DNA of 62,876 nt, the filler included. It is 4 parts of 4 records of this genome, joined end to end, with 100 filler letters (N's around TTAATTAATTAA, not from the genome) between each part and the next. Parts side by side here need not be neighbours in the genome. Positions count along the whole stretch, not along the records: positions 1 to 9,499 come from SRR20825019_2222; 3 more parts are not named here. The stretch is one strand, 5' to 3'. Shown in pieces: positions 1 through 10,650 of the stretch. The notes under the pieces were generated by a model. That model did no database searches. It had not been told where the DNA came from and saw nothing but the letters and a program-made list of their open reading frames with translations. Numbering within the stretch: the first letter of the stretch is position 1; each line of letters starts with the position of its first letter. The position numbers and the translations under genes were made by a program.

Positions 1-1512
1 TGCAATAAACATAACCTTAGAAAGGTCGTAGCCCATTTCCAAGAAATTGTCGTAAAATTCTTTATTTTGCTCAGGATCTAAAACTTCTAACATAGCCGAA
101 GAAGGGTCTCCATTATGACTAGAAGAGAGTTTATCTATTTCATCTAAAATAAAAACAGGATTAGAAGTTCCTGCTTTTTTAAGCGACTGTATAATCCTTC
201 CTGGCATTGCTCCTATATAGGTTTTTCTATGTCCACGGATTTCTGCTTCGTCTCGTAATCCTCCTAAAGAAATACGCACATATTCTCTTCCTAACGCCTC
301 TGCAACAGATTTCCCCAAAGATGTTTTACCAACTCCTGGAGGTCCGTATAAACATAAAATTGGCGATTTCATGTCGTTTCTCAACTTCAATACTGCCAAA
401 TATTCTATAATACGCTTTTTAACATCTTCAAGTCCGTAATGGTCTCTATCCAATATTTTCTGAGCACGCTTTAAATCAAATTTATCTTTAGAAAACTTAT
501 TCCATGGCAAGTCCAAAAACAAATCTAAATAATTACGCTGAATGGAATATTCTGCTACTTGCGGATTCATGCGCTGTAGCTTAGCCAATTCTTTTTCAAA
601 ATGTTCTTTTACCTTGGCATCCCATTTTTTCTTATTTCCTTTTATGCGCATTTGCTCAATCTCTTCTTCAGACGAAACTCCTCCCAATTCTTCTTGGATG
701 GTTTTCATTTGCTGATGAAGGAAATATTCCCGCTGTTGCTGATTAAGGTCGGATTGCACTTTAGACTGAATATCGTTTCTCAAATTTAACTTCTGAAATT
801 CAACATTCATAAACTTCAAAGTAGCTAAAGCACGCTCCTGAAGATTTTTTGTTTCTAGTAACTTTTGTTTATCCTTTACTTCCAAATTCATATTAGAAGA
901 AATAAAGTTTATTAAAAACGAGTTACTTTCTATATTTTTAATAGCAAAAGAAGCCTCCGAAGGAATATTTGGACTCTCTTTTATAATCTGTAAAGCCAAG
1001 TCTTTTATAGAGTCTATAATAGTTGTAAACTCTTCGTCTTCATTAGCAGGTTTTTCTTCTGGTAAATCTTTAATTTTCGCATTAAAATAGGGCTCTGTAG
1101 TTGTAATTTCCTCTATTTCAAAACGCTTTTTCCCTTGTATAATTACGGTTGTATTTCCATCGGGCATTTTTAAAACACGAAGAATTCTTGCTACAGTTCC
1201 TGTAGTATTTAAATCGGCTATTTCTGGATCTTCAACGGTTTCATCTTTTTGAGATACTACCCCAATTACTTTACTTCCGTTAGAAGCATCTTTTATTAAT
1301 TTAATCGATTTATCTCTTCCTGCGGTAATCGGAATTACAACACCTGGGAAAAGTACCGTGTTTCTAAGAGGTAAAATTGGGAGTGTCTCAGGCAAAACCT
1401 CATTGTTGATTTCCTCTTCATCTTCCGGAGTCATTAACGGAATTAATTCAGCATCATCATCAATATTTTGCAGTGACAAACTGTCCATATTTAAAAATTT
1501 GTTATTACTCAT
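1..1512 (-). CDS. lon: ATP-dependent Lon protease, 5' part (runs off window start)
   Basis: Manual translation from ATG at 1512: MSNNKFLNMDSLSLQNIDDDAELIPLMTPEDEEE...LPILPLRNTVLFPGVVIPITAGR (Lon N-domain); Walker A YGPPGVGKT near 325-350; HRKTYIGAMPGRIIQ motif. Absent from the ORF track because its stop lies outside the window. Confidence 0.96.
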   Translation of the reverse strand, partial: MSNNKFLNMDSLSLQNIDDDAELIPLMTPEDEEEINNEVLPETLPILPLRNTVLFPGVVIPITAGRDKSIKLIKDASNGSKVIGVVSQKDETVEDPEIADLNTTGTVARILRVLKMPDGNTTVIIQGKKRFEIEEITTTEPYFNAKIKDLPEEKPANEDEEFTTIIDSIKDLALQIIKESPNIPSEASFAIKNIESNSFLINFISSNMNLEVKDKQKLLETKNLQERALATLKFMNVEFQKLNLRNDIQSKVQSDLNQQQREYFLHQQMKTIQEELGGVSSEEEIEQMRIKGNKKKWDAKVKEHFEKELAKLQRMNPQVAEYSIQRNYLDLFLDLPWNKFSKDKFDLKRAQKILDRDHYGLEDVKKRIIEYLAVLKLRNDMKSPILCLYGPPGVGKTSLGKSVAEALGREYVRISLGGLRDEAEIRGHRKTYIGAMPGRIIQSLKKAGTSNPVFILDEIDKLSSSHNGDPSSAMLEVLDPEQNKEFYDNFLEMGYDLSKVMFIA

Positions 1513-1897
1513 AGTTCTTTATAAGTCATTCTGTCATTCAGAATGGGTTTAATTCTTCTTTTTCAGTAGTCCGTTAGCGCCTTAATTTACTGATAGTTTG
1601 TATACAAATTAAGCTTGCCAACATTTTAATCATTCTGTATAGGCAATACCCGTGCCATAATTAACAAATTGTATTTTTACGTTTAACCTCTAGCTATTGT
1701 AGATTTTCATTTCACTTTTATCTATAAGTTTCACTTTTTCTCTTCCAAAACTTATCCGAAGATTTAGTATCTTTCTCCCTTAATTCATTTTCAACACATG
1801 AAAGCCCACAATGGGCATTTAATAGAGAATAATCAACACCAACATAAATAATTTAAATTACTAACAATCAATTCGTTTTTGTAAAAATTTAATATAG

Positions 1898-3796
1898 ATG
1901 AAAAGCATTTTTTTAAGTCTTCTCCTTTCCTTTACCGTTTTTAATGGGTTTTCTCAGGATTTCTCTAAATACTTTATCAATCCGCCACAAGAAATTACAG
2001 TTTTAGATTCTTGCGTTTCTTTAACAAGTACAAATGCTAGTCAGCTTGAAAAACTCCTTACTATTACTACAAACATGGATTTTATTGGGTCTATGGATAT
2101 TGCAGAAAAGATTGGTTTTTCAAAATTACATCTCAATTTTAGTATCGATTCTTTACAGTTAAAGCCTCAAGGATATCGTTTAAAAATAACTACAGACACG
2201 CTGCAAGTTACAGGGCAAAATTTAGCCGGACTATTTTATGCTAAACAAACCCTTTCTCAACTCCTTTCGTATGCTATATCCGAAGGGAAATCGCTTCCTT
2301 GTATAGAAATTACAGATTGGCCAAATTTTGAAAGAAGAGGCGTTATGTTGGATGTTAGTAGAGACAAAGTGCCAACTATGGAAACACTTTATCAACTTAT
2401 TGATAAGTTAGCCGAATGGAAACAAAACGAATTACAACTTTATATTGAGCATACCTTTGCCTACAAAAACCATGAGGAAGTATGGAAAAATGCGAGTCCG
2501 TTTACTGCGGAAGAAATTAAACTCCTCGATGCTTATTGTCGAGAAAGACATATTGATTTAGTGCCGAATCAAAATTCGTTTGGGCATATGGAAAACTGGT
2601 TAAAGCATGATGAATATTTAGATTTAGCTGAATGTCCTGAAGATTGTGAAACTGTTTGGGGAAAACGAAAACGCACTAGTTTAAATCCGACTGACCCTGC
2701 TTCTTTTGAATTAATGAAGAGTTTGTATGAAGAATTACTTCCAAATTTTTCGAGTAAGTATTTTAATATTGGCGGAGATGAAACGGTAGAGCTTTGTTTA
2801 GGAAAGTCTAAAGAAGAATGTGAAAAGCTTGGAAAAGGACACGTATATTTAAACTACCTCACTAAACTCAATGAAGAAGTTAATAAGCAAGGAAAATTAG
2901 CTCAGTTTTGGGGAGATATTATTTTAAATCATCCAGAATTAATAAGTGAAATTCCTAAAAATATGACTGCGGTAGTTTGGGGATATGATGCCACCTACCC
3001 TTTTGATGAAAACTTACCAAAGTTTAAAAATGCAGGTTTAGAATTTTATGTGTGCCCAGGAACCTCTACATGGCGTTCTGAAATAGGAAGAAACACCAAT
3101 GCCTTTGAAAACCTTAAGAATGCTGCAATTGAAGGGCAAAAAAATAATGCAAAAGGTTTTTTAAACACAAATTGGGGAGATTTTGGTCATTTTCAACCAT
3201 TATCTGTTACCTATGCTCCACTGCTTCTTGGCGCTTCTTATTCTTGGAATTATTCAGAAAAATCTGTTGATAACTTAGCTTTTCATTTAAATCATTATGT
3301 GTTTAAAGACGAAACAGCCAATACAGGAAAAGCTATTTTAATGCTAGGTGATGCTTATCTAAAAGCAGATATTCCTGCAGGAAATGCCAATGCTTTCCAC
3401 TTAATGCTCCGAAGGTTTAAATGGACTATGAAAGGGCACTACCAAACAAAACACCTAACCATAAAAGGATTGGAAGCCGCAGAAAATGAGATTAATAACG
3501 CTTTAGCTATTCTTGATAAAGGGAAACCAACTTCTGAGGATGCTGCCATTGTAATTGCAGAAACAAAACAGGCTGCCAAACTTGCATTACATGGAGCTCA
3601 TTTAGGAGAAGCTCGATTAAAAGCAAAAGGATATGCCACGGAAAACATTCCGGAAGTAGAAAAAGAAAAACTAGCGGAAGAACTCGCGCCAATTATAGAA
3701 AATCAAAAGAAAACTTGGTTGCTTAGAAATCGTGAAGGGGGACTTGAAGATTCTACCGATAAATTGAAAGAATTATTAGAGTATTATAAAAATTAA
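1898..3796 (+). CDS. Secreted glycoside hydrolase family 20 (beta-N-acetylhexosaminidase-like)
   Basis: N-terminal signal peptide; GH20 domain-2 motif QGYRLKI...GLFYAKQTL; DWPNFERRGVMLDVSR; catalytic FNIGGDET (Asp-Glu) motif. Confidence 0.9.
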   Translation: MKSIFLSLLLSFTVFNGFSQDFSKYFINPPQEITVLDSCVSLTSTNASQLEKLLTITTNMDFIGSMDIAEKIGFSKLHLNFSIDSLQLKPQGYRLKITTDTLQVTGQNLAGLFYAKQTLSQLLSYAISEGKSLPCIEITDWPNFERRGVMLDVSRDKVPTMETLYQLIDKLAEWKQNELQLYIEHTFAYKNHEEVWKNASPFTAEEIKLLDAYCRERHIDLVPNQNSFGHMENWLKHDEYLDLAECPEDCETVWGKRKRTSLNPTDPASFELMKSLYEELLPNFSSKYFNIGGDETVELCLGKSKEECEKLGKGHVYLNYLTKLNEEVNKQGKLAQFWGDIILNHPELISEIPKNMTAVVWGYDATYPFDENLPKFKNAGLEFYVCPGTSTWRSEIGRNTNAFENLKNAAIEGQKNNAKGFLNTNWGDFGHFQPLSVTYAPLLLGASYSWNYSEKSVDNLAFHLNHYVFKDETANTGKAILMLGDAYLKADIPAGNANAFHLMLRRFKWTMKGHYQTKHLTIKGLEAAENEINNALAILDKGKPTSEDAAIVIAETKQAAKLALHGAHLGEARLKAKGYATENIPEVEKEKLAEELAPIIENQKKTWLLRNREGGLEDSTDKLKELLEYYKN

Positions 3797-3804
3797 TTTA
3801 CAGC

Positions 3805-3869
3805 TGTCAAACTGAGTTTCTGGAAGTTTTTAAAATAATGCAAGATCCTTCGACAAGCTCAGGAGGACA
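3805..3869. repeat. Imperfect inverted repeat of the Bacteroidota REP-like class (TGTCAnnCTGAG...CTTCGACAAGCTCAGGAnGACA)
   Basis: tgtcaaactgagtttctggaag (3805-3826) pairs imperfectly with cttcgacaagctcaggaggaca (3848-3869); lies directly after the GH20 stop. Confidence 0.6.
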
Positions 3870-3881
3870 TTCGACAAGCGG

Positions 3882-4038
3882 ACAAACTGCAAGCCTGATA
3901 TAGCTTACGAAAAGCTCAGGAAACGTACAACAGGTTCAGGATAAACAACTTGCAACCCTAAGAGAACTTAAGGCAAGTTCAGGATAATAAACAGCAAGCT
4001 CAGGATAAACAAACCGCAATCCTAATATAACTTAAGGC
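3882..4038 (+). repeat. Degenerate ~63-bp tandem repeat (2.5 copies); each full unit has two CAAGCTCAGGA-like sub-repeats
   Basis: Units start at 3882 (acaaactgcaagcctgatatagcttacg...), 3945 (acaacttgcaaccctaagagaacttaagg...) and 4009 (acaaaccgcaatcctaatataacttaagg). Confidence 0.75.
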
Positions 4039-4117
4039 TACAGCATACCAAACCTAGGATAACGCAATAAATACAACAAGGATGATAAATGGTGCTTTTT
4101 AAAAAGCTTCCTTTTAT

Positions 4118-4762
4118 TTACAATTTAATATACTTGTTTTTAATTCCGTAGAGTACTAATCCAATACGACTCCTAACTTGGAGTTTATCAAAAAGACTTT
4201 CTCGATAGCCATCTATTGTTTTAGGAGATAAAAACATTTCAGCAGCAATCTCTTTATAAGTCATTTCAGTACAAGCCAATTTTAAAAACTGTATTTCACG
4301 GTCTTTAAGCTCCACTCCATTCACTTTATTTTCTTCTTTTAAAACAGCGTCCAACAACTCATTAGTAATTCTATCTGAGTAATAAAAGCCTTTATGGATA
4401 ACATCGTCTATAGCTTTTTCCAATGTGTCTGGGTGAATATCTTTTAACAAATACCCTTTGGCGCCATTACACAACATTTTAATTATAATCTCCTCGCTAT
4501 CGTCCATAGAAAGCGCAATAACTTTTTGTTCTGGATGATTTTTATACAACCACTTCATTGTCTCCACTCCATTCAAAACTGGCATATTTATATCCATCAA
4601 AATTACATCTGGCATGGGTTTATGCTGTATTGTGTTTATTAAACTTTGACCGTTAACAGCATGGAAAGAAACTTGGTATTTATCAAAAGAATCTATTAGG
4701 GAAGTTAGGGATTTAGCAAATAGCAAATGGTCATCTACAATTGCAATATCATATTTTTTCAT
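4118..4762 (-). CDS. NarL/FixJ-family response regulator (REC + LuxR HTH)
   Basis: IAIVDDH, phosphoacceptor DVILMDINMP, GAKGYLLKD, HTH TYKEIAAEMFLSPKTIDGYRESLFDKL. Confidence 0.95.
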   Translation of the reverse strand: MKKYDIAIVDDHLLFAKSLTSLIDSFDKYQVSFHAVNGQSLINTIQHKPMPDVILMDINMPVLNGVETMKWLYKNHPEQKVIALSMDDSEEIIIKMLCNGAKGYLLKDIHPDTLEKAIDDVIHKGFYYSDRITNELLDAVLKEENKVNGVELKDREIQFLKLACTEMTYKEIAAEMFLSPKTIDGYRESLFDKLQVRSRIGLVLYGIKNKYIKL

Positions 4763-5547
4763 TACTCTTTTGGCTTAGTTGGATACACCAAAGTTACAGA
4801 AACTCCTTCATTCTTTTTACTTTCAATAGAAAAATCTGCTTCAATTAATTTAGCTCGCATCTGCATATTCATAATCCCCGTTCCATTTTGTGCTGCTTCA
4901 ACATCAAAACCAACACCATCGTCTACAACTTTTACATATAAATAAGAAGGGGTATATTTTAATAACACTGCCAAGTTAGCCGCTTTAGAATATTTTACCA
5001 CATTAGAAAAACACTCTTGAAAGATTCTAAAAATAATAATTTCGTCTTTTTTATCAATAGCATAAAAATCGCCTTCAATTGTATAGTTTATACTAATAAA
5101 ATTTAGCCTTTTAAAACGGTCAATTTCTATTTTTAAAGATTCTTCTAAGCCCCTTCTAGAAATAAAATCAGTATTTAATGTATGAGATAATTGTCTTATT
5201 TCACTTACTCCCTGTCCAAGAACATAAACGGCTTCTTCGTAAAATTTTTGCTTTTCTGGAGAGATATCATTCTGTAGCATATTTAATTGCATCTTCGCTA
5301 CCGAAAGCAATTGGCCAACATTATCATGCAATTCCCAACTAATATTTTTAAGGGTTTGTTCTTGAATTTCTGTTTGAGCTTTTGTAAGCTCCTTTTCATA
5401 GTTTTGCTTATCCTCAACTCTTTCTAGTAAAAATTGTGTTTTTTTCTGTTGATATGATAAAAAGTATTTAGTGGCATATATTACAACGATTATTATAATA
5501 AAACTGACATATAAAATTAAACCAACAATTTCCTCTTCGTGTTCCAT
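4762..5547 (-). CDS. HisKA_3-type histidine kinase with one N-terminal TM helix and no sensor domain
   Basis: One TM at about aa 7-30; H-box ELHDNVGQ; N-box QECFSNVVKYS; G1 DDGVGFD; G2 GTGIMNM; stop overlaps the regulator ATG (TAATG). Confidence 0.93.
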   Translation of the reverse strand: MEHEEEIVGLILYVSFIIIIVVIYATKYFLSYQQKKTQFLLERVEDKQNYEKELTKAQTEIQEQTLKNISWELHDNVGQLLSVAKMQLNMLQNDISPEKQKFYEEAVYVLGQGVSEIRQLSHTLNTDFISRRGLEESLKIEIDRFKRLNFISINYTIEGDFYAIDKKDEIIIFRIFQECFSNVVKYSKAANLAVLLKYTPSYLYVKVVDDGVGFDVEAAQNGTGIMNMQMRAKLIEADFSIESKKNEGVSVTLVYPTKPKE

Positions 5548-5586
5548 TAATTAGGATAAGTTTTTCTAATATTTAATTCCTCGATA

Positions 5587-5612
5587 AATCAACTACCTCG
5601 AGGTAGTTGATT
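5587..5612. promoter_or_regulatory. Perfect 26-bp palindrome AATCAACTACCTCGAGGTAGTTGATT between membrane gene and kinase
   Basis: Sequence equals its own reverse complement; 40 bp upstream of the kinase ATG; function unknown. Confidence 0.55.
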
Positions 5613-5709
5613 ATAGTTTAATTTAGGATTCTCTCTCTGTTTATAAATAACATTAAATAATTGTTATAAATAAAACATTTGCTGACAAATTTAAATTTTA
5701 CACCTTCCA

Positions 5710-6429
5710 TTAATAGGGGGCTTTTCCCCTTTCTAAAACACTTTTTTTTGCATTCACTACAAAACCAATAATAAAGCAGCCATAAAGCACTATGTTAGAA
5801 AGCAGTAATATAGAAACATAAATTCCTTGGAAATTGTAAAAAAGCCTAGTGAAAATAGTTATAGGTACTGTTACTAAATAATAAAAAAGAGAGCCTATTA
5901 TAAGCCAAAAAGAAAGTTCTTTATAGATGTTTAAAATTTTATCGGAATCAAAAATCTCATTAAAATAAAAGGTGGTAGCCAATAAGATCGATAAAGTCCC
6001 TGAAATACGAACCCACATTAAGCTTTTAGAAAAGAAACCTTCACTCCTTAAAGTTAAATCTAATATCACAAAAACAGTATAAATTAATAATATAACATAG
6101 ATATACCGCCTATGCTTAAACTTTTTTAACAATCTTAAAAAATAGTATAAATAAAGATAAAAGGTAATTATTCGAAATATATTAAATGCCCAATAATTTT
6201 GTTCTGAAATTACTTCTGGAAGTATTCCCTTAAAAAAAACGGTGAAAGTTGTTTGAGGAAAAAAATGAAAATAGATATAACTATATCCTATACATTCTGT
6301 TCCTAACGTTAATAGTAATAAATACAAAAAGTACCGATTGGGGGTATCTCGGTACTTTTTATAGGTAATACTTGCTATAACAGTAGCAGCTATAATAAAA
6401 AGAAAAATTAAAATTCGTAAATATAACAT
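5710..6429 (-). CDS. Uncharacterised polytopic (about 7 TM) membrane protein, putative receptor subunit for the kinase
   Basis: About seven hydrophobic segments; motifs YFLYLLLLTLGTECIG, NYWAFNIF, FWLIIGSLFYY; co-oriented upstream of kinase and regulator. Confidence 0.8.
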   Translation of the reverse strand: MLYLRILIFLFIIAATVIASITYKKYRDTPNRYFLYLLLLTLGTECIGYSYIYFHFFPQTTFTVFFKGILPEVISEQNYWAFNIFRIITFYLYLYYFLRLLKKFKHRRYIYVILLIYTVFVILDLTLRSEGFFSKSLMWVRISGTLSILLATTFYFNEIFDSDKILNIYKELSFWLIIGSLFYYLVTVPITIFTRLFYNFQGIYVSILLLSNIVLYGCFIIGFVVNAKKSVLERGKAPY

Positions 6430-6452
6430 ATAGCTTCACTAATTTTCTCCAC

Positions 6453-6839
6453 TTAATTAGGAGGCCATCCCATTGATGAATCATTATAAGAATCTACATC
6501 TTCAATCATTTCAGGTGCAGCTGCTTTGGCGCTTTTTGCAACAGTAGGAACGTCTTTAACACCTGTAGGCATAATAAACCCAGAGATATTTCCTTCTTTA
6601 TCGTCGTCATTATATCTTCCTAAAGAAAAACGTAACCCCAAGTCTTTATACCCTTTGTCTTTTGCTTCTTGTTTAAAATATGCAATGTACTCTTCTAACT
6701 CTTCTAAAGACCACCAAAACTGACTAGCAAATTCTTTTCCGAATTCTTTTTTAAGCGCTTTTTCAATAGTTTTAGCGTACTTGTCTTGTAGTTTTATCGC
6801 TTTTTTGTGTGTAATACACTTTTTTGGTTTTTTCGCCAT
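6453..6839 (-). CDS. Uncharacterised 128-aa cytoplasmic protein with C-terminal N-x4-G-x-PP tail
   Basis: Clean ORF, 23 bp from the next gene; core motifs WWSLEELEEYI, GLRFSLGRY, FIMPTG; ends YNDSSMGWPPN; no signal peptide. Confidence 0.8.
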   Translation of the reverse strand: MAKKPKKCITHKKAIKLQDKYAKTIEKALKKEFGKEFASQFWWSLEELEEYIAYFKQEAKDKGYKDLGLRFSLGRYNDDDKEGNISGFIMPTGVKDVPTVAKSAKAAAPEMIEDVDSYNDSSMGWPPN

Positions 6840-7057
6840 TTTGTAGTTGGTTTAATTATTTGTTTTAGGTTAAAAATTTTTCTTTCGTCCACTAAAATAT
6901 ATATTTTAACGTTTATATCCGATGGTTTCCTTATTTTTTTGATGAAATACTTATAACCTCGCACAACGTTACTTATTGAAGACATTTTTAAATAGAAACT
7001 ATTTTGATTATACTAGTTAAAATAAGTAACTTAAAGTGTTCATTAAAAACAACATAT

Positions 7058-7894
7058 ATGAAAGTCCTCAAATACAAATCTTCCGACCCCGCAGTTTATC
7101 TCTTAGAACAAATTCTCTTTAAATTAGGATACTCCATATATATTTCTAATTACTTTGGAAAAGATACCGATAATGCGGTAAAAGATTTTCAGCAAAAAAA
7201 TGATTTAGTTGTAGATGGAATTGTAGGAGTAAAAACTTGGAGTAAATTATTAAGCATAGAAAGAGAGCTTTTTAATAATACCGACAAACTACTTTCTGAA
7301 AAAGACTTAATTAATTTTGCACAAAAGTTTGAGATAGAACTTGCTACTGTTAAAGCTATAAATGAGATTGAAAGTAACGGAAAAGGCTTTCTCCTTTCTG
7401 GTAAAGCTAAAATACTATTTGAAGGACATGTTTTTTGGAGAGAATTAGTAAAAAGAAATATAGATCCAGCCCCGTATGTTAATGAAAATACTAAACATGT
7501 ACTTTACAAGAAGTGGACAAAAAAATATTATGTTGGTGGCGAAGGAGAATACAATAGATTAAGAATTGCTGCAACACTAGAAGCTAATGCAGCTTTTTAT
7601 GAAAGTGCCCACGCAGCAACCTCTTGGGGAACATTTCAAATAATGGGATATCATTACAAATCTTTGGGATATCCATCTATAACAGCTTTTGTAGAGGCTA
7701 TGCAAACCCATGAAAGAGAACATTTAAAAGCTTTTGGAAAATTTCTGGAGGTAAATAATTTAATAGGTTACTTAAAAAATCACCAATGGGAAGCTTTTTC
7801 TCGTGCCTACAATGGCCCTTCTTTTAAACGTAATCAGTACGACAAACAACTAAAGCTTCTATACTTTAAATATAAAAATATTAACTTGCGCTAA
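7058..7894 (+). CDS. Peptidoglycan-binding domain + N-acetylmuramidase (DUF3380/Muraidase-like)
   Basis: PG_binding_1 motif FGKDTDNAVKDFQ...DGIVGVKTW; muramidase motifs EIES, ILFEGHVF, SWGTFQIMG, YNGP; ATG 7058 preferred over TTG 7004; no signal peptide. Confidence 0.9.
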   Translation: MKVLKYKSSDPAVYLLEQILFKLGYSIYISNYFGKDTDNAVKDFQQKNDLVVDGIVGVKTWSKLLSIERELFNNTDKLLSEKDLINFAQKFEIELATVKAINEIESNGKGFLLSGKAKILFEGHVFWRELVKRNIDPAPYVNENTKHVLYKKWTKKYYVGGEGEYNRLRIAATLEANAAFYESAHAATSWGTFQIMGYHYKSLGYPSITAFVEAMQTHEREHLKAFGKFLEVNNLIGYLKNHQWEAFSRAYNGPSFKRNQYDKQLKLLYFKYKNINLR

Positions 7895-7942
7895 ATGCCT
7901 TTTATAAACGTTTTTAGCTCCCATTTGGTCGAAAACGTAACT

Positions 7943-7956
7943 AGGTATTTTCCCCT
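7943..7956. promoter_or_regulatory. Candidate LuxR-type operator AGGTATTTTCCCCT (related copy GGGGCTTTTCCCCT at 5717-5730)
   Basis: Imperfect inverted repeat about 50 bp upstream of ATG 8004, just before a TTATTTTG resembling the Bacteroidota -7 element. Confidence 0.35.
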
Positions 7957-8003
7957 TTTAACTGGCGGATATTTTCTTTATTTTGCTAAAAACAAAAAGC
8001 AAG

Positions 8004-8591
8004 ATGACACATACTACCTCTTATTTGGATGTTTTCCAATGTGTAAACTCCAAAACCACCCATTCTGTAGGGAAAATTAAATACTTAATTGAGAATGACG
8101 ATTTAAGTGCTTCCGATGAATTATACCGTTTTTTAAATGAAATTGAAGATATCTTCCGAAGGAACCAATTGTCGGAATTTACAGCTATAGCAACCTATAG
8201 AATTGAATTATTAGCCTCACGTTGGGCTTTGGATCAACGTATTCCGCAAAAGAGGTTTCAATTAGACAAAGCATCCGCTTTAATTCCTAATATTACAAAA
8301 ACTGTTTCTAACGCCTTAAAACCTATAGAAAACAAAATTAATACGGCTCGTAAAATTATTCAAGAATTGGTTTGTATGGCTTATGACAGTAATATGATTC
8401 ATTACCAAGAAAAAATAAACTTTGCGGATTTTTCAAACGGTTTATGGACACTTTTTCTTACCCATGATAGTTTCAAGGAAAAAGCTACTTTAGTTTCTAA
8501 ATCCTTGAGTAAAAACGACATTATTATTTTAATTTCTGAAGAAATTCATCAAAAAGAAAAGATTTCTCCTTCAGAAAAATCACTCTTTTAA
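8004..8591 (+). CDS. Uncharacterised, probably all-alpha-helical protein
   Basis: 195-aa ORF from ATG 8004; amphipathic helical pattern; no recognisable catalytic motif. Confidence 0.7.
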   Translation: MTHTTSYLDVFQCVNSKTTHSVGKIKYLIENDDLSASDELYRFLNEIEDIFRRNQLSEFTAIATYRIELLASRWALDQRIPQKRFQLDKASALIPNITKTVSNALKPIENKINTARKIIQELVCMAYDSNMIHYQEKINFADFSNGLWTLFLTHDSFKEKATLVSKSLSKNDIIILISEEIHQKEKISPSEKSLF

Positions 8592-9422
8592 TGAAAAAAT
8601 AATTTCTTCATCTGTACGTTTTTGCGCCAACAGCGCTATAGCTTCTTCTGTAAGCTGTAAAATTCTAGGATATCCCCCAGTTGTTTGTGCGTCTTTCATT
8701 AAAATAATAAGTTTTCCAGCAGGGGTAAATTGAACTGTTCCTGGCAGGGTTGACGAGGTTAAAATAGAATATTTATGTGGAAAAAGCTGTTGCTTTAATT
8801 GATATGCCATTCGGCTATTTTCCTTTGCAACATTAAATATTCCGCTTAACACTTGGTTTACTTGGTCTTTAGACAGTAAATTAAATTCTGGACCTTTGTA
8901 AACCTCCAATTCTTTATTATTAAAATCGTGATTCATTCCTGGTAAATGTTCTTTTACCTTATATTCTTTCCGTTTAGCTATTTCCAATGTTTTTCCCCTT
9001 TGCAAATGAGAATAGTTGGTTAAAGAAACATACCACGATTTACTTCCTAGAACAGTTTCGGTTTTAAATCCGCCTTGAACGGCTAAATAACAACGAAATC
9101 CATTTTTTAATTTCCCAAAAGAGATCATATCTCCTTTTTTTATATGATAAACTTCGTCATTATAGATATCATTTCCATTAAGTTTTGGAGAGATAATAGC
9201 GCCACTAATAGCTATAAGCGTTTCTTCATTAAATTCTAATTCAGGTCCCGTCATCGTTATTTCTAAAACAGCCGCTTTTTCTGGATTTCCAATAAGTTTA
9301 TTTGCAAATTTTGCAGAAATCATATCCATAACACCAGAAATAGGCACCCCTTTATCTCGATATTCAAACCGACCTAAATCTTGAATAGAAGAATAAAACC
9401 CGGGTTTATGTATTTGTATCAT
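8580..9422 (-). CDS. pxpC: 5-oxoprolinase subunit C (KipA / allophanate hydrolase subunit 2 family)
   Basis: PGFYSSIQDLGR, GFRCYLAVQGG, PGTVQ, DAQTTGGYPRI motifs. Confidence 0.92.
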   Translation of the reverse strand: MIQIHKPGFYSSIQDLGRFEYRDKGVPISGVMDMISAKFANKLIGNPEKAAVLEITMTGPELEFNEETLIAISGAIISPKLNGNDIYNDEVYHIKKGDMISFGKLKNGFRCYLAVQGGFKTETVLGSKSWYVSLTNYSHLQRGKTLEIAKRKEYKVKEHLPGMNHDFNNKELEVYKGPEFNLLSKDQVNQVLSGIFNVAKENSRMAYQLKQQLFPHKYSILTSSTLPGTVQFTPAGKLIILMKDAQTTGGYPRILQLTEEAIALLAQKRTDEEIIFSLKE

Positions 9423-9498
9423 CTAACTCATATGTTTTTAAATGAAAAATTCCAGCAGCTACTTGAATGGTAATTAGTTCGTGCTCGTCTTTATTAAT
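9406..9498 (-). CDS. C-terminal fragment, probably 5-oxoprolinase subunit B (truncated by contig end)
   Basis: Reads INKDEHELITIQVAAGIFHLKTYELDDTNT* and overlaps the pxpC start; identity inferred from the usual pxpB-pxpC order. Confidence 0.55.
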   Translation of the reverse strand: MNKDEHELITIQVAAGIFHLKTYELDDTNT

Positions 9499-9499
9499 A

Positions 9500-9599
9500 N
9501 NNNNNNNNNNNNNNNNNNNNNNNNNNNNNNNNNNNNNNNNNNNTTAATTAATTAANNNNNNNNNNNNNNNNNNNNNNNNNNNNNNNNNNNNNNNNNNNN
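9500..9599. other. Artificial contig linker (N44-TTAATTAATTAA-N44)
   Basis: Six-frame stop spacer flanked by Ns; genes truncated on both sides. Confidence 0.99.
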
Positions 9600-9600
9600 A

Positions 9601-10650
9601 ACCTACGCAATTCAATTTCACCCAGAAGTTTATCATACAACGCACGGAAAACAGTTGTTAGAGAATTTTCTTGTAAACATTTCTGGCGTTGAACAATCTT
9701 GGACTCCTGCTGCTTTTGTAGATACAACTGTAGCCACTTTAAAAGAGCAAATTGGCGATGGAAAAGTTGTACTTGGCTTAAGTGGCGGTGTAGATTCTAC
9801 AGTGGCTGCAATTCTTTTAAACAAAGCTATTGGAGATAATTTATACTGCATTTTTGTAAACAATGGGTTGCTTAGAAAAGATGAATTTGAAAGCGTGCTT
9901 CACCAATATAAAGACATGGGGCTAAACGTTAAAGGCGTTGATGCTTCGGAACGTTTTTTAAAAGCATTAAAAGGTGAAAGTGATCCTGAAAGAAAACGTA
10001 AAGCAATCGGGAATGCTTTTATTGAAGTATTTGATGATGAAGCCCATCAATTAACAGGTGTAGATTGGCTTGGACAAGGCACAATATACCCAGATGTTAT
10101 AGAAAGTGTTTCGGTAAACGGCCCTTCGGTGACAATAAAAAGTCACCATAATGTAGGTGGATTACCAGACTTTATGAAGCTTAAAATTGTAGAACCACTA
10201 CGTATGCTTTTTAAAGATGAAGTACGTCGTGTAGGAAAAGAAATGGGCATCGATCCAGAATTATTAGGCAGACATCCTTTTCCAGGGCCAGGCTTGGCGA
10301 TTCGGATTTTGGGCGATATTACAGCTGAAAAAGTTCGTATCTTACAAGAAGTTGACGCTATCTTTATAAACGGTCTTAAAAAATGGGATCTTTACGATAA
10401 AGTATGGCAAGCAGGCGCAATTTTACTTCCTGTAAATAGTGTTGGAGTAATGGGCGATGAAAGAACCTACGAAAAAGTAGTTGCTTTAAGAGCCGTAGAA
10501 TCTACCGATGGAATGACCGCAGACTGGGTAAACCTTCCTTATGAATTTTTACAAGAAGTAAGCAATCATATAATAAACCGCGTTAAAGGCGTTAATAGGG
10601 TAGTCTATGATATCAGCTCAAAGCCACCTGCAACCATTGAGTGGGAATAA
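9601..10650 (+). CDS. guaA: GMP synthase (glutamine-hydrolysing), 5' truncated
   Basis: [39 protein letters not shown]-terminal KPPATIEWE. Confidence 0.98.

Follow-up and report, generated by a model that had tools for sequence, protein, structure and literature searches.

Here, we describe a four-gene cassette that lies on the minus strand at 4118..6839 of a 62,876-nucleotide stretch of DNA, which we call the window, and that joins a two-component signalling pair to two protein families without a name in the databases searched. The cassette encodes a small soluble protein of 128 amino acids (p128), a seven-helix membrane protein (7TM), a histidine kinase that has a single membrane helix and lacks a sensor domain, and a NarL/LuxR-type response regulator. 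Because this four-gene arrangement is conserved in 58 loci of other genomes, we do not regard it as a product of chance. We consider it rather probable that the cassette is an accessory-protein-dependent sensing system, in which 7TM feeds or gates the kinase and p128 serves as an accessory.

The four genes are open reading frames (ORFs) that run in the same direction. The p128 gene (6453..6839), with an in-frame stop four codons 5' of its ATG, is followed after 23 nucleotides (nt; 6452..6430) by the 7TM gene (5710..6429), which encodes 239 amino acids. A spacer of 162 nt (5548..5709) then leads to the kinase gene (4762..5547; 261 amino acids), whose product matches the Pfam families HisKA_3 (9.1e-08) and HATPase_c (7e-08). 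The regulator gene (4118..4762; 214 amino acids) has base 4762 in common with the kinase stop codon, within the sequence TAATG, and encodes a receiver domain (Response_reg, 3e-23) and a GerE helix-turn-helix (1.5e-11). This layout bears out the first-pass annotation of this DNA, which had described four co-oriented genes, a soluble 128-residue protein 23 bp ahead of a protein with about seven membrane helices, a kinase with some six residues before its single helix and no input domain, and a translationally coupled NarL/LuxR regulator. That annotation passed over the spacer (5709..5548), which in the window keeps the four genes from being tightly coupled throughout.

The kinase begins with a six-residue acidic stub (MEHEEE), followed by one hydrophobic helix and basic residues, and neither a sensor nor a HAMP domain was detected in it. 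The same one-helix, sensor-less architecture was found in all 54 partner kinases from other genomes. In NCBIfam, the kinase and the regulator match NarL-class models far below the equivalog cut-offs, the kinase reaching 78.4 bits against the LiaS model, for which the cut-off is 450.

Eight loci found via p128, from Galbibacter, Joostella and other family members, have p128 and 7TM adjacent in every case (8/8), and the kinase and regulator come next in six of them. The proteins encoded at one locus, L001, are 98–100% identical to those of the window. A 7TM profile matched 191 of 301 genomes from the GTDB (Galbibacter) family of G202, the genome holding L001, and, in a sample spanning the phylum Bacteroidota, 58 of 401. 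A search with the single 7TM protein gave no match in 201 genomes around a different genome, G001, in which a search with the window DNA at 1500-9500 likewise found nothing and which is evidently poor kin of the window genome.

We examined 58 loci, made up of the 30 best at the family level and 28 further loci from the phylum sample; these are best-scoring matches, not a random draw. The kinase gene lies directly downstream of 7TM or of a 7TM array in 53 of the 58 (29/30 family, 24/28 phylum), 51 have a p128 relative immediately upstream (29/30 and 22/28), and the regulator comes next in 22/30 family and 20/28 phylum loci. Conservation of the two upstream genes beside kinase–regulator pairs, which the first-pass annotation had proposed to score, is thus borne out. 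The 7TM and kinase ORFs overlap or lie at most 10 nt apart in 46 of the 53 kinase-bearing loci, a count in which overlaps may be overstated, as each ORF was started at its first start codon. The departures take several forms: the p128 side of L039 is cut by a contig end, three 7TM genes reach the locus end in L041, L050, L055 and L066 are without a kinase, the kinase of L051 stands between two 7TM genes and is the gene upstream of the central one, and p128 was not detected in L065, L069, L072, L074 and L075. When the ±8 kb flanks of 28 loci were compared, only the four cassette genes were common beyond the family. Within it, synteny extends to LamB/YcsF and carboxyltransferase-domain genes on one side and to ketopantoate hydroxymethyltransferase and pseudouridine synthase genes on the other.

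Co-occurrence was counted across the 301 family genomes with a kinase threshold of E ≤ 1e-55. Both 7TM and a short kinase are present in 153, 7TM only in 38, the kinase only in 3 and neither in 107; in one of the three kinase-only genomes, the kinase stands at the very start of a contig. Since related genomes are not independent, we give counts and no P value. G202 has only two short one-helix HisKA_3 kinases, both of which adjoin 7TM-family genes, and the two genomes in which 7TM arrays have no adjacent kinase (L003, L005) each carry one short kinase–regulator pair elsewhere.

Neither upstream protein could be assigned to a family in Pfam (E ≤ 1 for 7TM), NCBIfam, PADLOC or PHROGs. Pfam gave no match for 42 relatives of p128, and no family common to more than one member among 82 diverse relatives of 7TM (E ≤ 0.01). 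Sequence-profile searches of the PDB with the two proteins returned no match in one case and a single match, at E 0.96, in the other. The first-pass annotation had raised the prospect that p128 might match a known enzyme with an unrelated role; neither p128 nor 7TM matches a known enzyme or family. In the literature, searched as full text without supplementary files, we found no description of the cassette or of either family; one paper, PMC10197871, concerns an unrelated LytTR system.

A word-based protein search, which gave 10 close homologs of p128 and 4 relatives of 7TM, at first suggested that both families are rare, and a full search with hidden Markov models corrected this. With the 7TM profile, 1.84 billion representatives yielded 492 clusters at E ≤ 1e-3, of which 159 reach E ≤ 1e-10 and 20 reach E ≤ 1e-30. 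Among the 492, the 150 top-scoring ones are stand-alone proteins, mostly of about 200–250 amino acids, and the shorter ones among them align to part of the profile only. The p128 family comprises 67 distinct ORFs in the fetched loci. The ESM Atlas gave matches to unnamed Bacteroidota clusters only; an automatic Atlas name, ‘phage terminase small subunit’ (score 0.91), was set aside, PHROGs having given nothing. We likewise dropped a toxin-immunity or defence reading of the tandem pairs, as PADLOC returned nothing for p128, 7TM or the kinase and only Cas6b at E 0.011 for the regulator.

The AlphaFold2 model of 7TM, with a predicted local distance difference test (pLDDT) score of 95.6 and a predicted template modelling score of 0.90, consists of seven long helices. 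Foldseek found no PDB match for it at E ≤ 1e-3. In the VIA comparison, the top 50 matches were all G protein-coupled receptors (GPCRs), designed GPCR-like folds, LYCHOS or microbial rhodopsins, with Z-scores of 9.8–12.0 and root-mean-square deviations of 3.7–6 Å over about 190–230 residues, in a range (Z below about 13) where helical bundles may share their arrangement only. In helix 7, the window protein lacks any lysine ahead of K228, which stands at the cytoplasmic end of the helix, and the consensus of the 82 relatives has none, so 7TM is not a retinal protein.

The distribution of positive charge predicts a topology with the N-terminus outside and the C-terminus inside. Over 82 sequences, the count of lysines plus arginines is 3.55, 3.13, 2.20 and 3.18 in loops 1, 3 and 5 and the C-terminus (inside), and 0.30, 0.77 and 0.27 in the N-terminus and loops 4 and 6 (outside). 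Conservation is lower on the outside (outer helix halves 0.386, periplasmic loops 0.338) and higher on the inside (inner helix halves 0.467, cytoplasmic loops 0.405). The cytoplasmic loop between helices 5 and 6 (loop 5) carries the motif E158-IFDSDKIL in the window protein. A strict version of this pattern is present in 24 of 34 kinase-coupled 7TMs, with near-matches in 5 of the 10 misses, and in none of nine kinase-less 7TMs, whose loop is basic and unconserved.

Contact between 7TM and the kinase was also approached by complex prediction. For 7TM with kinase residues 1–130, predicted without our own alignments, the score was 0.50 (runs 0.48, 0.52 and 0.50), and the best control gave 0.00; contacts agreed to at least 97% between runs, and the pLDDT of the partners was at least 80. 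Of 78 solved complexes, 51 reached the pass mark, as did 2 of 108 mismatched pairs, and the range up to 0.60 contained only 5 of the 78 solved complexes and all 4 passing mismatches (of 180). At this level, the prediction lends weak support to a contact between 7TM and the kinase.

The AlphaFold2 model of p128 (pLDDT 83.6) shows two helices packed on a beta-hairpin, to which the C-terminal tail adds strands. A variable, low-confidence linker (about residues 96–109) precedes this tail, whose strands at residues 111–120 are modelled with a pLDDT of 92, and the C-terminal motif is not hypervariable but ranks with the most conserved parts of the family. No relative of this fold emerged, the best Z-score in VIA being 4.3 and Foldseek giving no PDB match at E ≤ 1e-3. 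We considered p128 as a pseudo-catalytic domain and rejected the idea, given that kinase ATP-binding domains reach only Z 2.8–3.5 in VIA, at the level of noise.

The p128 of the window has no signal peptide and no hydrophobic stretch. Many of its relatives are membrane-anchored proteins or lipoproteins, and so are not diffusible. In 61 p128–7TM pairs, p128 is without a hydrophobic N-terminus in 40 and exported in 21, and the inside-positive bias of the partner 7TM is kept in 40/40 and 21/21 of these, respectively. The same small domain thus appears, from these sequences, to lie on one side of the membrane in some lineages and on the other side in others. The first-pass annotation had taken p128 to be the source of the signal, by analogy with agr/com quorum sensing. 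This is not supported: p128 is modelled as a folded domain with a conserved tail, the window protein lacks a signal peptide, many relatives are tethered, and 5 of the 28 phylum-sample loci have 7TM, kinase and regulator with no p128 detected upstream. The best reading is that p128 is an accessory partner of 7TM and not a secreted signal precursor.

The loci fall into sub-types. Type A, to which the window cassette belongs, combines the kinase and the regulator with between one and four 7TM genes and a short p128 that has no signal peptide. In type B (L038, L043-L049), a p128 with an N-terminal membrane anchor is followed by 7TM and the kinase; no regulator was found in the flank past the kinase (about 680–750 nt; only 2 nt in L046), and these kinases are orphans at their locus. 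Type C consists of a lipoprotein-type p128 of 210–250 amino acids and 7TM without a kinase, and is found in two settings, upstream of a type A pair (L005, L007) and by itself at a fixed place. A kinase-less pair adjoins the gene of ribosomal protein S20 in L055, L066 and L111, and an ATPase-domain gene, rho-like by eye, lies on the other side of such a pair in L066, L111 and L112; both neighbours were checked with Pfam in L111 and by eye elsewhere. Arrays of two to four tandem 7TM genes before one kinase occur in L033, L046, L041 and L005.

A second cassette in G202 (L077, G202:C2:369579-373316) consists of a regulator, a kinase and a 194-residue 7TM, which lacks its N-terminal part (the 5' end is cut) and lies beside a DDE transposase gene. 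The ORF list of L077 contains no p128; a p128-like ORF (144 amino acids, 8e-11) does occur in the overlapping locus L014, at its far end.

Promoter-like motifs occur at two places in the window. The Bacteroidetes -7 promoter consensus is TAnnTTTG. A TATTTTAG motif at 6892-6899 stands 52 nt before the p128 start, and 23 of 61 loci have TATTTTAG or TATTTTTA no more than 100 nt from that start. The 7TM–kinase spacer contains a TAAATTTG motif at 5686-5693, which makes a separate promoter for kinase and regulator possible. The same spacer carries a GC-stem hairpin and TAAATTTG-type motifs in L004 and L006, and a weaker hairpin with a TAATTTTG-type motif in L007; in the Galbibacter/Joostella clade, the 7TM gene is followed within it by a hairpin, and a TAAATTTG-type motif is also present. 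A scan for sigma-70 promoters and terminators returned nothing above shuffled sequences.

The window spacer also holds a perfect 24-nt palindrome (5588-5611), with 12 twelve-mer half-site matches in the window against 3.1 expected. A role as a regulator site was considered and rejected, as L001 has the palindrome but the same spacer of L002, L004, L006 and L007 does not. The pattern GG-W(5-7)-CC occurs upstream of p128 in 26 of 61 regions, compared with 40 of 313 control upstream regions, and at least two copies occur in 11/61 and 10/313, respectively. It lies 66–205 nt before the p128 start (L018-L070), frequently as two inverted copies with a T-run after them, and might serve the regulator as a binding site or form a leader hairpin; none was found in the window at 3797-7200. 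In RNA libraries of three studies, contigs were found over parts of p128, the p128/7TM junction and the regulator. Another contig, which lies over 7TM and ends in adapter-like and poly-T sequence, stems from a run that is labelled as RNA by a guess. These contigs are too short for operon structure to be read from them, and we take them as a weak sign that the cassette is expressed.

Taken together, the conserved adjacency, the tandem arrays, the variable outer face, the loop-5 motif and the complex score point to 7TM as the partner of the kinase, and we consider a physical partnership between the two to be likely. That 7TM is the input subunit is a step towards which we lean with modest confidence. 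The proposed mechanism would run as follows. The one-helix, sensor-less kinase would depend on the stand-alone 7TM encoded upstream, which would touch it in the membrane and probably via the conserved loop between helices 5 and 6, and would thereby supply or gate its input. The kinase would phosphorylate the NarL/LuxR-type regulator and so change transcription, probably including that of the cassette itself, and p128 would modulate 7TM as an accessory partner. The contact, the direction of control and the autoregulation are what we infer from the observations above. Of the split receptor that the first-pass annotation had envisaged, the part in which 7TM partners the sensor-less kinase remains the best reading, with the kinase beside it in 53 of 58 loci, and the part in which p128 supplies the signal is not supported.

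A number of results weigh against this mechanism. Export of p128 in 21 of 61 pairs, with an unchanged charge bias in 7TM, leaves a single p128 binding mode unexplained. The multimer of 7TM and the kinase helix, which the first-pass annotation had suggested modelling, outscored its control, but no interface was reported for 7TM with kinase residues 1–130. A kinase-less subfamily has the p128–7TM pair with no adjacent kinase, and no short kinase was found in its genomes at E ≤ 1e-55, which shows that the pair can work without an adjacent kinase; the contrast in loop 5 between coupled and kinase-less proteins may reflect one evolutionary split. The Z-scores of 7TM are too low for helical bundles to be trusted as relatives, so we claim a GPCR- or rhodopsin-like bundle and not homology. 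Judging from the 162 nt between them, the window 7TM and kinase genes may be transcribed separately. Finally, if the parallel with SaePQ holds, p128 and 7TM may be modulators rather than sensors; SaePQ are described in PMC5083920 as dispensable for SaeS activation and as raising phosphatase activity only.

Among known systems, the closest layout by analogy is that of SaePQRS of Staphylococcus aureus, followed by LiaFSR. The cassette pair is of other classes than the Sae kinase and regulator. PMC5083920 and PMC3748130 describe a small auxiliary protein of about 130–150 amino acids, a polytopic protein, a kinase with hardly any extracytoplasmic part and a regulator, with auxiliaries of no known family and an arrangement of outer and inner promoters that may be shared by the cassette. 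SaeP and SaeQ, a lipoprotein and a four-helix membrane protein, are reported there to have no homology to proteins of known function and to form a ternary complex with the sensor-less kinase, inducing its phosphatase activity; a weak internal promoter drives the two-component genes alone and an autoinduced outer promoter all four (PMC5083920). The differences are that SaeQ has four helices and 7TM seven in a GPCR-like bundle, and that the sae regulator gene precedes the kinase gene. In addition, the cassette kinase has one helix and no HAMP domain, and the window p128 has no lipoprotein signal. The three-component systems LiaFSR/VraTSR of Firmicutes share with the cassette a HisKA_3 kinase without a real extracellular sensor, a NarL-type regulator and a gene for an accessory membrane protein directly ahead of the kinase, as described in PMC3543457 and PMC7191749; LiaF is a negative accessory protein of such a pair (PMC3543457). 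By contrast, 7TM has no LiaF-type match in Pfam or NCBIfam, p128 is a fourth gene, and the phylum is another.

These parallels invite the main alternative, in which the kinase senses the membrane or envelope by its own helix, while p128 and 7TM, once induced, inhibit it or push it towards phosphatase activity and so set gain or shut-off. Its appeal lies in the layout, which is that of saePQRS (small protein or lipoprotein, polytopic protein, two-component genes), in the promoter-like motifs before p128 and in the 7TM–kinase spacer of the window, and in the many p128 relatives that are lipoproteins like SaeP. We nevertheless think it unlikely, though worth keeping in view. Tandem 7TMs with a more variable outer face fit diversifying receptors better, a six-residue stub and one helix leave the kinase little to sense with, and, in most genomes, the 7TM and kinase ORFs overlap, which suggests that the two proteins must be made together. 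Pfam gave nothing linking the proteins to SaeP, SaeQ or LiaF, a result from Pfam alone, the Sae proteins not having been directly compared. Less likely again is that p128 and 7TM form an independent envelope module with its own enzymatic, carrier or protective task, which the kinase monitors or with which it is merely co-inherited. BceAB-BceS is an example of flux sensing. Kinase-less pairs at a fixed chromosomal place (L055, L066, L111, L112), the 38 of 191 7TM-positive genomes without a short kinase at E ≤ 1e-55, the arrays of L003 and L005 with no kinase beside them, and muramidase or GH20 hexosaminidase neighbours that hint at the cell wall would all suit such a module. Against it, no catalytic motif or transporter fold was recognised and the fold matches receptors and rhodopsins only, 7TM is coupled to a kinase in 53 of 58 loci, and the kinase-coupled subfamily has its own conserved cytoplasmic loop.

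Peptide signalling of the agr/com kind, in which p128 would be processed and exported, its C-terminal peptide would be an autoinducer and 7TM the receptor, strikes us as very improbable. In Agr (AgrBDCA) and ComQXPA, as here, genes for a small protein, a polytopic protein, a kinase and a regulator are clustered. ComP and ComA belong to the HisKA_3/NarL class, to which the cassette kinase and regulator also belong, the p128 and 7TM genes are always paired, and the p128 tail is preceded by a variable linker. However, the sensor of the known systems is fused to the kinase, whereas the cassette kinase has a single helix, and the cassette regulator has GerE where Agr has LytTR. By Pfam, the cassette and its scanned neighbours contain no processing or export gene, with no AgrB-type processing enzyme in the four genes and four neighbours and no ComQ-type prenyl-transferase among the window genes scanned. 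The tail, in turn, is conserved family-wide and modelled as strands that pack back on the domain. Two further comparisons concern 7TM itself. SRII-HtrII and Anabaena sensory rhodopsin with its 14-kDa soluble transducer are rhodopsins with a separate transducer; they resemble the cassette in having a stand-alone seven-helix protein without an output domain, and in a small soluble protein that is co-encoded. They differ in that 7TM has no retinal lysine and resembles them at the level of the bundle (Z about 10; rhodopsins 9.8–10.5), and in that the output of the cassette is a histidine kinase and not a chemotaxis transducer. 7TMR-DISM and 5TMR-LYT are seven- and five-helix input bundles fused to receptor kinases; here too a polytopic bundle would serve as histidine-kinase input, but as a separate polypeptide, and their Pfam models matched neither the window 7TM (E ≤ 1) nor the 82 relatives (E ≤ 0.01).

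Returning to 7TM as the partner that feeds or gates the kinase, a bolder version can be put forward tentatively. The 7TMs could be ligand-binding receptors of GPCR fold that signal in trans via loop 5 to the one-helix kinase, with diverged tandem receptors converging on one kinase, and p128 could be their co-receptor, on one side of the membrane or the other depending on the lineage.

The genes around the cassette provide some hints on its biology. Across the divergent intergenic region upstream of p128 (6840..7003) lies a plus-strand gene for an N-acetylmuramidase (7004..7894; Pfam Muramidase 8.3e-58, PG_binding_1 1.4e-14). A muramidase homolog stands beside p128 in at least seven genomes of different clades (window/L001, L005, L013, L042, L056/L093, L057/L095 and L059), and this enzyme, with its peptidoglycan-binding domain, is a possible target of the regulator. 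Beyond the regulator gene, the window has a gene for a GH20 hexosaminidase. The two neighbours are a lead to cell-wall or amino-sugar sensing, and nothing more. A plus-strand ORF of 202 amino acids at 7983-8591 has no Pfam or NCBIfam match and recurs as a neighbour (cluster c13) in six loci. At about 9550–9600, a masked stretch appears as a run of X in a translated ORF, before a GMP-synthase-like gene at 9655-10650. At L081-L083, in three genomes, p128 has beside it a T4 gp19-like tail tube gene (PF06841, 4.1e-49) and a gene for an unnamed 291-residue protein, which suggests that the neighbouring locus is a contractile injection system.

Sensor-less two-component kinases are common and their input is mostly not known; the cassette pairs one of them with two families unnamed in databases. 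In a major family of marine and soil bacteria, it occurs in about two thirds of the genomes sampled (191/301), and across Bacteroidota, a phylum with few characterised signalling systems, in 58 of 401. Accessory-dependent two-component systems are already known, and what is new here is both families, the free-standing GPCR-like partner of a kinase, the tandem receptor-like arrays and the wide spread in Bacteroidota. If the p128–7TM pair is a SaePQ-like brake, this design would have arisen independently in an unrelated phylum. If 7TM is a receptor, the cassette would represent a free-standing GPCR-like bundle that drives a histidine kinase in trans, and a cassette-promoter reporter combined with the receptor arrays would give a direct route to the stimulus.

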